This document shows, in pieces, positions 26,837 through 32,763 of a stretch of DNA of 52,641 nt (positions are counted from its first letter, which is position 1; each line of letters starts with the position of its first letter). The position numbers were made by a program, and so were the translations under genes. Source of the DNA: Minisyncoccota bacterium. GTDB lineage: Bacteria; Patescibacteriota; Minisyncoccia; Phycocordibacterales; UBA1550. The notes beneath the pieces were generated by a model that had not been told where the DNA came from, searched no databases, and saw only the letters and a list, made by a program, of their open reading frames with translations. The stretch lies in contig JAVHQE010000064.1 in NCBI GenBank assembly GCA_036170975.1, forward strand, positions 1 to 52,641, written 5' to 3'.

Positions 26837-28495
26837 ATGAATGTTTCGACACTTGATATTATTCACAACATATCGTTTGTAGGATGGGCGGTTGTTCTCA
26901 TAAGCTTTTTGCTCACTCTTTTTTCAGGGATTATTTTTTGGCAAGATGTAACAAAACGAAGTAATCGTTTTTTCTTTTTCTTTGGGGCAATCATCGGTGT
27001 GTGGGGTCTTGCGTACGCTTTTTTTGAGGGAACGTTGGGTACCCCTCTTGTACACCAGTCAATTATTGTGCTCTATCTAGTGTCGGGACTCGTTCCTCTT
27101 TTTACCTTTATCTATCTCTATGTTTTTTCTACAGAAAAAACCCCTTTTTCTTTTTGGAAATTTGTAGGACTCTTTAGTTCTTATTTGACTATTTCTGCGA
27201 CATTAATTCTTCCCGACTTTGTTGTTGGGTATCAAGACGCTTTAGGTGGCGAAGCGGGAAGAATAATTTTTGGGAAGGGATACTTACTTTACGCTATGTA
27301 TGTCTGTGGTTTTCTTGTTGCGGGGGTCTATATCCTTGTGCAGAAATATCGAGAAAGCGCGGGGATTTTTAAGATTGTTATTCGCGATCTTCTTATCGCG
27401 CTCTCCTTTGGTTTTCTGGTTGTCGTTTCTATAGAGGTTCTTTTCCCTTTGTTAAGTGGCGGAAGTAATTTATTTTGGGTTGGGCATCTAAGTGTCGTTA
27501 CTTTTGGAATTACTACTTCAGTTATTCTTGCGCGGTACAATTTTTGGAGTATTAAAGTAGTAATGACTGAGTTTTTTATTTCGATCGTCATTTTTATTTT
27601 AATAATAGAACTTTTTCTTGCAAACTCTATTCTTGATTTGTTTATAAAGACAGCCATCCTGTTGTTCATTGTTCTTTCGAGTTCATTTTTGGCAGGAAGT
27701 CTTCAGCGTGAGATTGAATCAAAAGAAAAGATTACGAGGCTTTTGCGTGACCTTGAGTTTCTTTCAAAACAGTTCAAGATTCTTGATAGGAAAAAATCAG
27801 AATTTCTTGCAATCTCATCTCATCATTTACGGGACCCGCTCACCGCAATTAACGGGTATGCTTCTATGCTCATGGAGGGGTCTTTTGGTGAGATCTCGCC
27901 CGCCCTCCACAGTGCTCTTGAAAAAATTTTTGAATCAAGCAAGCGCTTGATAACCATGGTGTCTGATTTTCTTGATATTTCACGTATTGAGAGTGGGCAT
28001 ATGAAGTATAATTTTGAAGAAGTTGATATGAAGAAAATAGTGGTTGAGGTTGGTGATGAAATGAAATTAAACGCTCAGCATGCGGGGCTTGTTTTCAACA
28101 TGGATATCAAAGAAGGGGAATATGGGAAAGAGACATTTTTTACCATAGGGGATGCTGGCAAGTTAAGGCAAGTTATTTCGAACCTTATTGATAATTCAAT
28201 AAAATATACACCTCATGGAGAAGTCATGATATCTCTAGAGAAAAGCGCTGATAGAAAGAAAATTATTTTTAGTATCACTGATACGGGAATCGGGATGAGC
28301 AAAGAAACTATTGGAAAGATTTTTAAAAAATTTAGTCGTGCGGATGGGGTGAGCAAACTTTACACGGAAGGCACTGGGCTTGGGCTCTACGTGGCAAAAG
28401 AAATTATGAAAAAACACGAAGGGCGTATCTGGGCAGATTCAAAAGGTGAGGGCGTTGGGTCATCTTTTCACCTTGAGTTGGAGGTAAAGTTATAA
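26837..28495 (+). CDS. sensor histidine kinase, paralog of the upstream gene
   Basis: Multi-TM N-terminus, H-box AISSHHLRDPLTAINGY, N-box IDNSIKYTP, G1 DTGIGM, G2 GTGLGLYVA. Confidence 0.85.
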   Translation: MNVSTLDIIHNISFVGWAVVLISFLLTLFSGIIFWQDVTKRSNRFFFFFGAIIGVWGLAYAFFEGTLGTPLVHQSIIVLYLVSGLVPLFTFIYLYVFSTEKTPFSFWKFVGLFSSYLTISATLILPDFVVGYQDALGGEAGRIIFGKGYLLYAMYVCGFLVAGVYILVQKYRESAGIFKIVIRDLLIALSFGFLVVVSIEVLFPLLSGGSNLFWVGHLSVVTFGITTSVILARYNFWSIKVVMTEFFISIVIFILIIELFLANSILDLFIKTAILLFIVLSSSFLAGSLQREIESKEKITRLLRDLEFLSKQFKILDRKKSEFLAISSHHLRDPLTAINGYASMLMEGSFGEISPALHSALEKIFESSKRLITMVSDFLDISRIESGHMKYNFEEVDMKKIVVEVGDEMKLNAQHAGLVFNMDIKEGEYGKETFFTIGDAGKLRQVISNLIDNSIKYTPHGEVMISLEKSADRKKIIFSITDTGIGMSKETIGKIFKKFSRADGVSKLYTEGTGLGLYVAKEIMKKHEGRIWADSKGEGVGSSFHLELEVKL

Positions 28496-28610
28496 AATAG
28501 GGGAGGGTATACTGATATAGACAAAATATGTTTTAAACGCTAGTCTTTTTTTGGAAAAGGCCCTTTAAAAAGGTTTTTTTAGTTCATTCACAACACTCTA
28601 GGGGCATATC

Positions 28611-29612
28611 ATGCATACCACTGAAACAATCCTTTCGGGCATTCGTGCTACAGGAAGGCTCCATTTTGGAAACTTCCTTGGCGCAGTTCAAAACTTCGTT
28701 AAATTCCAGCAACCCGGGAATACGTGTCTTTACTTCATCGCAGATTGGCATACCCTGACCACCCTTCAGAACCCTGAAGAGCTTCGGGGAAACCTGATCG
28801 AGATAGTGAAGGACTACATTGCCGCGGGTCTCGACCCAGAGCAGTCGACTATCTACGCTCAATCAAGTGTTCCGGAAATTTCGGAGCTTTGTTTGTACTT
28901 GAGTATGATTCAACCACTCGGAGACCTGGAGAGAATCCCAACGTTCAAGGATCTTATCCGTAAGAACCCTGACAATGTGAATTTAGGAATCGTCACATAC
29001 CCAGTTCTTATGGCGGCTGACATCTTAGGGCCGAAGGCGACATTTGTTCCAGTTGGTGAAGATCAGGTTCCAAATGTTGAACTTGCACGGGCCTTGGCTC
29101 ACAAGTTTAATAGTCGTTTTGGGGAAACGTTTATTATCCCCAACATGATGCAGCAAATGATTCGGGTGCCTGGTCTCGACGGAAGCAAGATGGGAAAGTC
29201 GGAATCGGATAATGCAATTGATATAAATTCCCCGATTTCTGTAATCAGGGAGCGTTATCTCAAAAAGGGGGTTACGGATATAGAGCGTAAACGCGCTTCG
29301 GATCCGGGTGACCCCTATGGTCGTTGTCAATCTGTGTACCCCGTACACGAGTTGGTTACGGCTGGCGAAACCGAAACACGAACTATTGCGAATGCTTGTC
29401 GCACCGCTCAGATAGGGTGCAAAGAATGTAAACATCGACTTGTAGACGGCATCGCCAAGATATTGGAACCGTTCCAAGCAGCACGCGCTGAACTTTCTGA
29501 AAAGGATGACTATATCGAAGAAATCCTCCATGAAGGTGGCAAAAAAGCACGTGTGATGATTTGCGAAACAACTATGGATGTCCGCGAGAAAATGGGCATC
29601 GTTATCTATTAA
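28611..29612 (+). CDS. trpS: tryptophan--tRNA ligase, paralog 1, with a Cys4 (4Fe-4S-type) motif
   Basis: HFGN (HIGH-like), KMGKS (KMSKS-like), and C-x23-C-x6-C-x2-C (GRCQSV...NACRTAQIGCKECK). The coding sequence is GC-rich. Confidence 0.85.
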   Translation: MHTTETILSGIRATGRLHFGNFLGAVQNFVKFQQPGNTCLYFIADWHTLTTLQNPEELRGNLIEIVKDYIAAGLDPEQSTIYAQSSVPEISELCLYLSMIQPLGDLERIPTFKDLIRKNPDNVNLGIVTYPVLMAADILGPKATFVPVGEDQVPNVELARALAHKFNSRFGETFIIPNMMQQMIRVPGLDGSKMGKSESDNAIDINSPISVIRERYLKKGVTDIERKRASDPGDPYGRCQSVYPVHELVTAGETETRTIANACRTAQIGCKECKHRLVDGIAKILEPFQAARAELSEKDDYIEEILHEGGKKARVMICETTMDVREKMGIVIY

Positions 29613-29637
29613 CTCAAATAAGTGAAAGGAGAATGTT

Positions 29638-30828
29638 ATGGAACAACAGCTCTTAAAATCCGAGAACCTTGATCTCAAGGAACTCGGGAAGCGTCTTTAT
29701 GGTGTGGATATGCTCATCGTTGCATTATTGAAGCGTCGGATGGATCTGGCTCTTCAAGTAGGCGAGTACAAGATCGAAAAAGGACAAAAGATTTTTCGCG
29801 CAAGCGTTGAGTCGAAACGACTAGCTCAGGTACGAGCTGAGGCACGCAGGTGCAAGTTAAGCCCGCATTTTGCCGCATCAATCTTGTATCAGGCTATCGA
29901 TGAGTCCTGTAAGCAGCAAATGATTCAATTGCAGAATGCAGCTACCTGCCGTCGCAAACGTCCAAAGACTGAAGACGATTGGTACCGCTTACTGAAAAAG
30001 AATTTGTTGCTTTTAGCAAAGCGGTGGGCTTATTCTTACGACGAGGACTATGACAAAGCTTTCTTCGCGACACACACCTATCTCGAGTTTGAGGAAGAAA
30101 TTCTTAAGCAAGAAATAAAGCAGGTTGCCAGAAATGGGCTTGCTTTGGATCTAGGGTGTGCGACGGGCAGGTTAGCCGTAAAGCTCACGTCTTCGTTTGA
30201 CCAGGTCGTCGGCTACGACATAAGCCCTCACATGGTAAAGAAGGCTAATGAAAAGACGGGCGAATTTCCAAATCTTTCTTTTGTCGAAGCTGACATAGAA
30301 AATGGAATTCCTCTGCCAGATAATTCGGTGTCGTTGGTGGTCATGAATCTTGGGACTGCGAGTGACATTCGTGATATTTCTGGAGTTCTCAAAGAAGTTG
30401 AGCGTGTTCTCGAGACAGGCGGAAGATTTTTCTTTTCGTTCTACAATCGGGATGGGCTCTTGTATCAGTGGGACTTTGTTCCTTGGCCAGTTGGGCTTGC
30501 TGCTGAAATTAATGTTCATAAGCATTGCTTGGATGTCCATGTGGGCGCAAAGGTTTTATCTGTGTACGCACGTCCGTATAGCGTTAAAGAAGTAGAAAGT
30601 TTGTTCTCGTCGTCGATGAAGGTTTTAAAAGTTCTGACACATCCAACGATTAGTTCAATTCTTCCGCATACTTTGTTTGAGGGGAAGCCAGCTATTCAGA
30701 AGTCGATGGTAGATATCGATCGCCAGCTTTCAATAGCGAGTCATGGTGCATACATTTTGGACACGATTGTCGGGTGGGCCAGCCGTTGTTTTGGTTTATG
30801 TGCGAAATCGATGAGTGTGCGTGCATAA
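29638..30828 (+). CDS. fusion of a chorismate mutase type II (AroQ) domain and a class I SAM-dependent methyltransferase domain
   Basis: N-terminus LGKRLYGVDMLIVALLKRRMDLALQVGEYK...FRASVESKRL is AroQ-like. Later ALDLGCATGRLAVKL (motif I) and VVMNLGT, GGRFFFSF. AGGAGA SD-like sequence upstream. Confidence 0.7.
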   Translation: MEQQLLKSENLDLKELGKRLYGVDMLIVALLKRRMDLALQVGEYKIEKGQKIFRASVESKRLAQVRAEARRCKLSPHFAASILYQAIDESCKQQMIQLQNAATCRRKRPKTEDDWYRLLKKNLLLLAKRWAYSYDEDYDKAFFATHTYLEFEEEILKQEIKQVARNGLALDLGCATGRLAVKLTSSFDQVVGYDISPHMVKKANEKTGEFPNLSFVEADIENGIPLPDNSVSLVVMNLGTASDIRDISGVLKEVERVLETGGRFFFSFYNRDGLLYQWDFVPWPVGLAAEINVHKHCLDVHVGAKVLSVYARPYSVKEVESLFSSSMKVLKVLTHPTISSILPHTLFEGKPAIQKSMVDIDRQLSIASHGAYILDTIVGWASRCFGLCAKSMSVRA

Positions 30829-30914
30829 ACATGAGGATGATGTAGGTCTTCGAAACTCAGGCTTGTGTAAGGCTTGGGTTTCTTTTTATAAACGGGTATC
30901 ATGTAGTAAATACT

Positions 30915-31721
30915 ATGAAGATAGAATACGATAAACAAGTTCAGGGAGGTGGTGGTGAAAATATCCTAGTTATTGGGTGTGTTCACGGAGATGAATTGAT
31001 TGGAGAGAAAGTAATCAAGGAACTTCGTAAACTCACTGTTCAAAATGGGACGTTAGTGACTGTGATTGCAAATACGCGCGCGATGAAAGAAGGCAAGCGG
31101 GTTATTGACCAAGACCTCAATCGGGTATTCCCAGGGAACCCGCAAGGAAACCACGAGGAACAGTTGGCGCACTCGCTAATCCCGTTATTAAAAGAAGTTG
31201 ATATTGTTTTGGATATTCACTCGACGACAACAGACACCACTTCAGCAATTATTCTTACAAAAGTAAATCAATCTATCAAGCAACTGCTTTTAGTTTTTAA
31301 TCCCAAGAAGGTTGTTGTGATGGAAAAGAAAGTTGGAAAAACTGCGCTTACTGGGTTTTGTAAAGCAGGTATTTCTTTTGAGTACGGTAAGGATAAAAGC
31401 GAGAAGGCATACAAAGAAACTCTTATGGATATCATAAAAATCCTTGAAGGATACGGAGTGATAAAAGGAAAGAAAAAAAAGATATCTAAACCTACACATA
31501 AAACAGAATATTTTGAGGTACTTGGTGTACTCGTTCGACCAAATGGTTTAAAACTTGAGAAAAAGATAAAAAACTTTTCACTTGTGCGAAAAGGGGAGGT
31601 TGTCGCTAGAGGTGGCGTGCATCTGCAAAAAGCACCACGCAATTTTTATCCACTTTTGTTTGGCCCCGTATCATATAAAGAGATTTGGGGTTTTATGGCA
31701 AAGAAAGTAAAGAGTATTTAA
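30915..31721 (+). CDS. succinylglutamate desuccinylase/aspartoacylase family (M14-like) metallohydrolase
   Basis: VIGCVHGDELIGEKV, DLNRVFPGN and LDIHST motifs, typical of the AstE/AspA family. Confidence 0.75.
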   Translation: MKIEYDKQVQGGGGENILVIGCVHGDELIGEKVIKELRKLTVQNGTLVTVIANTRAMKEGKRVIDQDLNRVFPGNPQGNHEEQLAHSLIPLLKEVDIVLDIHSTTTDTTSAIILTKVNQSIKQLLLVFNPKKVVVMEKKVGKTALTGFCKAGISFEYGKDKSEKAYKETLMDIIKILEGYGVIKGKKKKISKPTHKTEYFEVLGVLVRPNGLKLEKKIKNFSLVRKGEVVARGGVHLQKAPRNFYPLLFGPVSYKEIWGFMAKKVKSI

Positions 31722-31791
31722 TTAAAAGAACAAGTGTTTACGTACTACGAATTCCTTTTGAAAAAAGCTTGGTTTCTGGTAGTATAGGGGA

Positions 31792-32763
31792 ATGAAGAAA
31801 ACACTATTAGCGGGGATACAACCATCGGGAACTGTCCATATCGGTAATTATTTTGGTGCAATGCGCCAGTTTGCTGACCGTCAGGACGACTACCAGCAGT
31901 TTATTTTTATTGCAAACTATCATGCACTTACGAGTGTTTCTGACGGGGAAAAGCTTAAGAGACTTACTCTTGAAGTTGCGATGGATTATCTTGCTATTGG
32001 TGTTGATCCAAAAAAGACCGCAATATTCATGCAGTCTGATGTTCCCGAGGTTACCGAGCTTGCGTGGATTTTCAATACTATTACTACAGTACCATACCTC
32101 GCACGCGCGACTGCGTTCAAAGATGCTGAGGTAAAAAACAAAGAAGTGAATGTCGGGCTTTTTGATTACCCTATTCTCATGGCGGCAGATATATTGATAT
32201 ACAGTGCTGACGTGGTTCCTGTAGGGCTTGATCAAAAGCAACATATTGAGATTGCACGTGACACAGCGCAAAAGTTCAATCGCGTGTTTGGCGACACGTT
32301 CAAGACTCCAGAACCAATGATTCTTGAAAATGTTAAAACTGTTCCTGGCACCGATGGTCGCAAAATGAGTAAAAGTTACGGAAACACAATTCCGCTTTTT
32401 GGAACTGATGAAGAAATCAGGAAGGCCGTAATGAGTATCCCCACAGATTCGAAGGGTGTCGAGGAGCCAAAAGACCCAAATGGTTGCAAGGTGTTTGCAA
32501 TGCACGAGCTTTTTCCTGGTGACGAGCTGGAAGCACTTCGCACACGTTATCTTGCAGGGGGTATTGGCTATAAGGAGTCAAAGGATTTATTGGTGGCAAA
32601 AATAATCAACTTTATTTCGCCGATGCGTACACGCCGTGAGGAGATTGCGCGTAATCCTGACGCTGTGCTAAAAATCTTGAAAGAGGGTGGGGAAGTGGCA
32701 CGTGCAGAAGCTCAAAAGAAGATGCAAGAAGTGCGAGAGAAAGTGGGGTTAACTTTAAAATAA
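31792..32763 (+). CDS. trpS: tryptophan--tRNA ligase, paralog 2 (housekeeping-like)
   Basis: GTVHIGNYFGA (HIGH), KMSKS, no Cys cluster. Base composition resembles the surrounding genes. Confidence 0.9.
   Translation: MKKTLLAGIQPSGTVHIGNYFGAMRQFADRQDDYQQFIFIANYHALTSVSDGEKLKRLTLEVAMDYLAIGVDPKKTAIFMQSDVPEVTELAWIFNTITTVPYLARATAFKDAEVKNKEVNVGLFDYPILMAADILIYSADVVPVGLDQKQHIEIARDTAQKFNRVFGDTFKTPEPMILENVKTVPGTDGRKMSKSYGNTIPLFGTDEEIRKAVMSIPTDSKGVEEPKDPNGCKVFAMHELFPGDELEALRTRYLAGGIGYKESKDLLVAKIINFISPMRTRREEIARNPDAVLKILKEGGEVARAEAQKKMQEVREKVGLTLK

Follow-up and report, generated by a model that had tools for sequence, protein, structure and literature searches.

Why would a bacterium with a genome of only 0.86 Mb encode two tryptophanyl-tRNA synthetases (TrpRS), one of which carries the cysteine motif of an iron-sulfur (Fe-S) enzyme? 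The question is raised by a contig of 52,641 nucleotides (JAVHQE010000064.1, hereafter the window) in the Minisyncoccota bacterium assembly GCA_036170975.1, where two trpS genes, encoding the proteins P0001 and P0002, are found close together on the forward strand. The source genome is a metagenome bin of 864 kb in 167 contigs, 92.8% complete and with an estimated contamination of 1.3%, and its host is a mesophilic Parcubacterium from groundwater. The cluster-free P0002 is the native TrpRS of this lineage, P0001 can be taken with good confidence as an intact Fe-S-type TrpRS acting as an accessory enzyme, and the comparisons of gene order and distribution made here show, at the level of sequence, that the Fe-S trpS was horizontally acquired within a conserved three-gene module.

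An earlier note on this DNA had placed two full-length trpS genes at 28611-29612 and 31792-32763. Both open reading frames are found there and both exceed the 176.75-bit cut-off of the NCBIfam trpS equivalog TIGR00233 (250.6 bits over residues 5-330 for P0001 and 314 bits for P0002), which has no other match in the genome. The intergenic distance of 2,179 nt agrees with the 2.2 kb given in that note, the "3 kb" of its title being the distance from start to start. Its view that the pair is not an assembly duplication also stands, since P0001 and P0002 are only 39% identical. The features of the two genes are given below, with residue counts from a set of 121 sequences, P0001 itself plus the 120 top-ranking homologues in the database (72-93% identity):

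28611 to 29612, forward strand: accessory TrpRS with a [4Fe-4S] motif, P0001, 333 amino acids (TIGR00233, 2G36 match, AlphaFold model, Fe-S clade)
28662 to 28673, forward strand: HFGN (HIGH-type) signature, P0001 residues 18-21 (H in 117, F in 112, G in 121 and N in 121 of the 121 clade members)
29187 to 29201, forward strand: KMGKS (KMSKS-type) loop, P0001 residues 193-197 (KMGKS in 115 of 121; K193 and K196 invariant)
29286 to 29288, forward strand: Arg226, equivalent of T. maritima Arg224 (alignment to 2G36; invariant in the 121)
29325 to 29429, forward strand: C239-x23-C263-x6-C270-x2-C273, predicted cluster-binding segment, with His246 (aligned to 2G36; invariant in the 121)
31792 to 32763, forward strand: native cluster-free housekeeping TrpRS, P0002, 323 amino acids (TIGR00233, synteny, clade without Fe-S motif)

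The signature pairs, HFGN/KMGKS in P0001 against HIGN/KMSKS in P0002, can be read as had been claimed. In the open frame of P0001 the class I motifs, the indole-binding Asp137 and G149-E-D-Q152 are all intact (the roles of the class I signature, Asp and GEDQ residues are described in PMC10201369). The possibility of a pseudogene, raised in the earlier note, was checked for both copies; with open frames, class I motifs, Asp and GEDQ present in each, neither P0001 nor P0002 looks like a pseudogene.

The ligands of the [4Fe-4S] cluster in Thermotoga maritima TrpRS are Cys236, Cys259, Cys266 and Cys269, and the motif of the family is given as C-x(21-24)-C-x6-C-x2-C (PMC2954223). Arg224 of this enzyme touches the cluster and is the proposed reader of C34 (PMC2954223; PMC4027196); in a theoretical study, the Arg224-cluster-His242 unit, named R-FeS-H, was described as conserved in bacterial Fe-S TrpRS, and a part in the recognition of C34 was proposed for it (PMC4027196). 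Where an organism has more than one TrpRS gene, the Cys motif is carried by a single copy, and the role of the cluster was still unclear in the structure paper of 2010 (PMC2954223).

The four-Cys arrangement GRC-x23-C-x6-C-x2-C, claimed for the first paralog only, is confirmed as Cys239, Cys263, Cys270 and Cys273 of P0001, with a spacing within the published range; in a pairwise alignment P0002 retains the first motif Cys and lacks the other three. The likeness to T. maritima TrpRS was also confirmed. Among solved structures, P0001 matches that enzyme best (TM0492, 2G36; HMMER, E 9.4e-72; 40% identity), and the alignment that had been suggested as a check leaves the claim unrefuted, all four Cys falling one-to-one on the ligand columns Cys236/259/266/269, with Arg226 on Arg224 and His246 on His242. 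The two proteins also share an N-terminal strand of the form SG(I/M)R(A/P)TG and an ADWH motif. The AlphaFold model of P0001 (predicted local distance difference test score, pLDDT, of 93.9) has 2G36 as its top fold match in the PDB, with template modelling (TM) scores of 0.90/0.93 and a root-mean-square deviation of 2.1 Å. For P0002, the best solved-structure match is a cluster-free Campylobacter enzyme.

Across the 121 sequences of the P0001 clade, C-x(22-24)-C-x6-C-x2-C is present without exception (x23 in 119), and no variation is seen at the four Cys, Arg226, His246, Gly20, Asn21, Lys193 and Lys196; Asp137 is kept in 120. A motif whose four Cys are so constant is not there by chance. The genome also encodes an Fe-S assembly system, with a SUFBD core, a SufS-type desulfurase and a NifU_N/SufU scaffold on contig C74, and one tRNA-Trp(CCA) with G73 was detected. 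Taken together, the full-length match, the class I signatures, the four Cys, the R-FeS-H residues and the SUF genes of the host support the assignment of P0001 to the [4Fe-4S]-type bacterial TrpRS.

The distribution of the two types of gene is very different. The P0002-type gene is present in nearly all of 24 genomes of the same genus, with orthologues 73-84% identical to P0002 in G001, G006, G024 and G004, against two of the 24 for the P0001-type gene (G004 and G008, both 90% identical to P0001). In a sample of 400 species genomes drawn evenly from the class, four (G367, G290, G158 and G207) carry a P0001-type gene, and the next-best TrpRS is at most 47% identical, leaving a clean gap; in a phylum-wide sample, the gene was found in none of 400 genomes at E<=1e-85. 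Each of these four class genomes also encodes a second TrpRS, about 40% identical. Their native TrpRS are 36-43% identical to P0002, and their Fe-S copies are 83, 74, 73 and 74% identical to P0001, respectively. Across families, the accessory proteins are thus far closer to one another than the native ones are, which speaks for horizontal spread.

In a tree of 130 TrpRS, P0001 is placed in a tight clade composed entirely of Fe-S sequences (Shimodaira-Hasegawa-like approximate likelihood ratio test, SH-aLRT, 99), the sister of which, within an all-Fe-S group (SH-aLRT 98), is a G027-type clade; P0002 lies far off in a separate cluster-free clade (SH-aLRT 100). The phylogeny had been proposed in the earlier note as a means to identify the donor lineage, and in this respect it failed: the nearest named relatives outside the P0001 clade again belong to the candidate phyla radiation (CPR), namely Parcubacteria and Berkelbacteria, so that no outside donor can be named, and the deep nodes of the tree are without support. 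The Fe-S TrpRS of G027, a genome of another family in the same order, is 55% identical to P0001. The G027-type sister clade likewise has a C-x24-C-x6-C-x2-C motif, and the G027 protein itself (L020:6474-7844), like P0246, P0247, P0394 and P0396, bears an N-terminal extension of about 126 amino acids with five CxxC pairs, resembling a zinc ribbon.

How the accessory gene came to lie beside the native one can be read from the gene order of relatives. G001, G006 and G024 have the order kinase-kinase-trpS-aspS-scpA, as has G004 at its native locus, and the native trpS follows the kinase at a distance of only about 55-85 nt. It is exactly at this point that an insertion of 3.3 kb (28496-31791) is found in the window. 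The same three island genes are found in G004 and G008 on other contigs, with unrelated flanks and not adjoining the native trpS. Besides the Fe-S trpS, the island contains a chorismate mutase (CM)-like domain (CM_2) fused to an S-adenosylmethionine (SAM)-dependent methyltransferase and an AstE/AspA-like hydrolase; the features of the island and of its right border are:

28496 to 28610, forward strand: left island junction and 5' leader of the Fe-S trpS, beginning after the kinase stop codon (synteny of relatives)
29638 to 30828, forward strand: fusion of a CM_2-like domain and a class I SAM-methyltransferase, P0003, 396 amino acids (Pfam CM_2 and Methyltransf_11/25/31)
30852 to 30882, forward strand: terminator-like hairpin, 13-bp stem and T run, 3' of the trpS-methyltransferase pair (consensus scan only)
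30915 to 31721, forward strand: AstE/AspA-family zinc hydrolase-like protein, P0004, 268 amino acids, third island gene (Pfam AstE_AspA_cat, 80.7 bits)
31758 to 31785, forward strand: promoter-like site shortly before the native trpS, TTGAAA-16-TAGTAT with TG (consensus scan only)

The first two island genes, with GC and third-codon-position GC (GC3) contents of 47.1/47.3% and 45.6/46.9%, have the highest or near-highest values of the 29 window genes measured (mean GC 41.6 ± 3.3%, mean GC3 36.6 ± 5.3%). The shift is modest, and a strong compositional island was rejected, the rise in GC being real but mild against the window mean. No convincing direct or inverted repeats flank the island and no mobility genes were found with it; the search of IMG/VR with P0001 returned no relative, and phage carriage of P0001 was rejected on this empty result. 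Riboswitch or T-box control was likewise rejected on empty Rfam scans, which gave no T-box or other family in 28300-32000 beyond a chance-level bglG match, and no T-box anywhere in the genome. When the loci of the two congeneric carriers are compared (L025 in G004 and L026 in G008), the Fe-S TrpRS are both 90% identical to P0001, and the methyltransferase fusions are 42% and 87% identical to P0003; since the fusions diverge and the TrpRS are equally close, the module is mosaic.

The gene for P0003 starts 25 nt downstream of the Fe-S trpS in the same orientation, and this association is found well beyond the window. Of the 17 loci examined, 15 combine the fusion with a linked extra TrpRS, non-Fe-S types included. 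It occurs in seven of the 400 class genomes, among which are all four Fe-S TrpRS carriers, and in these (G367, G290, G158 and G207) it lies directly downstream of the Fe-S trpS; the co-occurrence has a hypergeometric p of about 3e-8, calculated by hand with kinship between genomes ignored. When P0001 homologues served as seeds for metagenomic loci, the fusion lay within 2.2 kb in all four, and three of four loci seeded from the fusion have a P0001-clade Fe-S TrpRS (67-82% identity) beside or near it. In G339 and G322 the fusion adjoins an extra TrpRS without the Cys motif, placed elsewhere in the tree; these non-Fe-S copies share TGDRPTG...HLGHY with Chlamydia TrpRS (6NCR), a sequence which we take to be present in Deinococcus radiodurans TrpRS II as well. 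Since the fusion also stands beside non-Fe-S TrpRS, its partnership is with "an extra TrpRS" and not specifically with the cluster. Neither this module nor the accessory, mobile status of the Fe-S copy had been recognised in the earlier note.

The N-terminal domain of P0003 scores 58.8 bits against Pfam CM_2 (PF01817), above the gathering score of 27. Compared with AroQ/CM_2 mutases such as the Escherichia coli P-protein domain (EcCM, 1ECM), five residues are kept, R34, K45, E58, S90 and Q94 being the equivalents of Arg28, Lys39, Glu52, Ser84 and Gln88. The complete EcCM-type active site (Arg11', Arg28, Lys39, Arg51, Glu52, Ser84 and Gln88) is not present, the positions of Arg11' and Arg51 being Gly17 and Val57 in a gapless alignment to 1ECM; other arginines (R19, R54 and R61) are conserved in the P0003 family instead. 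P0003 differs further from AroQ mutases in its fusion to a methyltransferase and in the lack of a detectable chorismate pathway in its genome. The model of P0003 (pLDDT 88.7) gives fold matches to generic class I methyltransferases (Hvo_0019, TM1389 and CmoM), with a TM-score normalised to the target (TMt) of about 0.68 for CmoM (4HTF/8JOZ) and scores normalised to the query (TMq) of at most 0.48 for the methyltransferase matches. The NCBIfam matches of this domain (UbiE, ArsM, BioC and similar) are all far below cut-offs, and a Protein Atlas search gave nothing beyond the cluster of P0003 itself and generic methyltransferases. The idea of a CmoA-like enzyme, with carboxy-SAM made from chorismate via prephenate, was therefore left unsupported by these generic matches, and CmoA is absent among the 25 best NCBIfam families and the 50 PDB fold matches listed for P0003.

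The P0003 family is small: at E<=1e-20, a search of 5.8 billion proteins gave 332, and all matches with a named organism come from Parcubacteria-group bacteria. The C-terminus of P0003 (window 30766-30828) is about 20 residues longer than in nearly all homologues, which have about 375-380 amino acids and align to about residue 376; this tail has low model confidence and may be a lineage-specific extension or reflect a late stop codon. A direct fusion of CM_2 to a bacterial-type TrpRS was also considered and rejected: none was found among the long representative relatives, which carry tRNA_edit, B3_4, tRNA_bind or a second TrpRS instead. In the database representatives P0348, P0368, P0390, P0330, P0312, P0284 and P0287, these additions are a YbaK-type editing domain (three proteins), B3_4, a C-terminal tRNA_bind domain or a tandem TrpRS (714-789 amino acids). 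TrpRS is not known to have an editing domain, which makes the YbaK fusions unusual.

In the third island gene product, P0004, the HGDE, NRVFPG and DIHS motifs align with 3CDX, and the HxxE...H motifs are intact. A gene of this type is found in seven of the 400 class genomes and, close to the module, in at least eight other loci (G004, G008, G290, G322, L015, L028, L031 and G027). At the G027 locus (L020) such a gene is close by, and no CM-methyltransferase is found within 14 kb. Several loci contain additional genes. A protein of about 250 amino acids without Pfam match (L015:8408-9178, L028:7133-7870 and L019:2537-3280; 30-49% identical) separates the AstE/AspA-like gene from the TrpRS/methyltransferase genes; it is absent from the window and may be a fourth, facultative component of the module. 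In L029, a CM-methyltransferase locus with no TrpRS nearby, a Trp_repressor-family gene (PF01371; 1913-2227) lies about 3 kb upstream, with AstE/AspA-like and MR_MLE (racemase-type) genes downstream. In a Candidatus Azambacteria record (L013:9609-11901), the module is directly followed by Glycos_transf_3 (TrpD-family) and BtpA-family genes; neither family was found in the source genome, and a wider "tryptophan island" with both was rejected here.

What, then, might the accessory enzyme do? As regards the physiological role of the module, we infer, and consider rather probable, that P0001 is an Fe-S TrpRS which serves within a mobile module as backup for charging when the native enzyme is compromised. 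Cys239, Cys263, Cys270 and Cys273 would hold a cubane cluster, supplied by the SUF system, in the anticodon-binding domain, and Arg226 and His246 beside it would assist in the recognition of C34 in the one tRNA-Trp(CCA) detected. The module, composed of the Fe-S trpS, the presumably co-transcribed fusion and often the AstE/AspA-like hydrolase, moves horizontally among Parcubacteria. The extra TrpRS would keep tRNA-Trp charged in the presence of a tryptophan-like or chorismate-derived antimetabolite, or under tryptophan scarcity, and the methyltransferase and the hydrolase would act on the small molecule involved.

Three known systems can be compared with this arrangement; the role of auxiliary TrpRS as resistance or stress enzymes in other bacteria, brought up in the earlier note, serves here as background only. 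Unlike T. maritima TrpRS, which comes from a thermophile, P0001 is an accessory and horizontally moving enzyme of a mesophilic Parcubacterium, described from sequence and a model, tied to a CM-like methyltransferase gene and bearing HFGN/KMGKS signatures. D. radiodurans TrpRS II (1YI8/2A4M) is a stress-induced partner of nitric-oxide synthase. It resembles the present case as an extra TrpRS paired with a second enzyme, which for TrpRS II acts on tryptophan chemistry, and differs from it in clade, P0001 belonging to the Fe-S clade and not to that of TrpRS II. Antibiotic producers have auxiliary, inhibitor-insensitive TrpRS, such as Streptomyces TrpRS1 with respect to indolmycin (PMC9437257). 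As in these, the second copy is here divergent (about 30-40% identity), patchily distributed, horizontally transferred and adjacent to enzyme genes; P0001 appears to differ in that no inhibitor pathway was recognised and no attenuator detected around it, its neighbours being the CM_2-like methyltransferase and the AstE/AspA-like hydrolase.

Several points weigh against the model of P0001 as an Fe-S backup enzyme. The island neighbours bear no evident resemblance to known indolmycin-type pathways, and the tryptophan pocket of P0001 (Met134, Asp137, Ile138 and GEDQ) is canonical, with no sequence sign of inhibitor insensitivity. Cluster binding and aminoacylation by the P0001 clade are matters that we infer from sequence, and the crystal structure of Pyrococcus horikoshii TrpRS is cluster-free in spite of the Cys motif of that enzyme (PMC4027196). 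The set of detected tRNA genes is incomplete (36 genes), which leaves room for a second tRNA-Trp; none of the 36 is for Met, Ile, Asn or Asp, most likely owing to incompleteness of the assembly. The fusion is found without a nearby extra TrpRS in G087 and L029. Finally, searches for chorismate synthase (PF01264) and for chorismate-binding enzymes (PF00425) were both empty in the 92.8%-complete genome and both positive in 14 of 14 control genomes.

An alternative to translational backup, possible but unlikely, is a specialised use in which a pathway of P0003 and P0004 draws on the extra TrpRS for Trp-AMP, for Trp-tRNA(Trp) or for the charging of a modified tryptophan, the product being a tryptophan-linked small molecule or a modified tRNA. 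Such a use would fit the tight and apparently operonic linkage across three TrpRS lineages, the presence among the fold matches of P0003 of CmoM, a carboxyl methyltransferase of the tRNA wobble base, and the YbaK-type editing fusions in other TrpRS, which hint at near-cognate substrates in some lineages. However, P0001 keeps all features of a normal translational TrpRS, anticodon-reading residues included, the methyltransferase fold matches are generic (TMq at most 0.48), the island is without a dedicated tRNA, carrier protein or peptide-forming enzyme, and a source of chorismate was not detected in the genome. A more pointed version, which is put forward tentatively and with a similarly low probability, is that of a two-enzyme system, made up of the Fe-S TrpRS with the CM-like methyltransferase and working outside ordinary translation, in which the methyltransferase would target Trp-AMP, Trp-tRNA(Trp), the anticodon loop of tRNA-Trp that the cluster would read, or a host-derived chorismate-like metabolite that controls charging.

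It is rather improbable that P0001 is a redox-, oxygen- or iron-conditional isoenzyme, with the cluster as a sensor or stabiliser and with incidental neighbours. The cluster motif is indeed invariant and confined to the accessory copy, the organism is from groundwater, and condition-specific duplicates of aminoacyl-tRNA synthetase (aaRS) genes are well documented (PMC9437257). But the same fusion is linked to extra TrpRS devoid of the Cys motif (L017 and L019), which weakens this explanation, and its linkage is too consistent for the neighbours to be incidental.

Neutral redundancy or an ongoing xenologous replacement, in which a transferred trpS would have no distinct role, is very improbable. 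While the adjacency of the two genes would fit an insertion at a homologous target and aaRS genes are often exchanged, both copies are kept in all carriers checked (the present genome, G004, G008, G367, G290, G158 and G207), the accessory TrpRS shows stronger conservation than its native counterpart, carrier genomes of only 0.6-0.9 Mb would hardly retain dispensable genes, and in G004 and G008 the island lies away from the native trpS. An artefact of assembly or binning, by which the Fe-S trpS would come from another organism, could be suggested by the source, a metagenome bin of 167 contigs with contamination estimated at 1.3%, and by an island GC slightly above its surroundings, but is most improbable in view of the position of the island inside a 52.6-kb contig with genus-typical gene order on both flanks, the presence of all sampled words of 28611-30828 in four sequencing runs (possibly the source samples), and two congeneric genomes with 90%-identical copies.

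The coexistence of an Fe-S TrpRS with a cluster-free copy has been known since 2010 (PMC2954223); the present pair adds a case from the Parcubacteria, a lineage and a lifestyle on which that paper is silent. No paper linking TrpRS to a CM-methyltransferase fusion was found in the literature, nor one linking Fe-S TrpRS to Patescibacteria or dealing with cross-family transfer. In these bacteria, which have some of the smallest known genomes, the Fe-S TrpRS takes the form of a dispensable additional copy that is exchanged horizontally, more strongly conserved than the essential native TrpRS and coupled to one uncharacterised enzyme family. P0001 and P0002 thus provide a natural comparison, in one cell, of TrpRS with and without a cluster, and with P0003 as a defined partner the set could reveal what a cluster-bearing TrpRS does beyond an ordinary one. 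If the two-enzyme system were real, it would be a transferable device by which host-dependent Parcubacteria sense or exploit tryptophan supply, and would give the iron-sulfur cluster of TrpRS a testable role. For the biology of the CPR, the locus adds evidence that host-dependent organisms invest in tryptophan-specific accessory functions.

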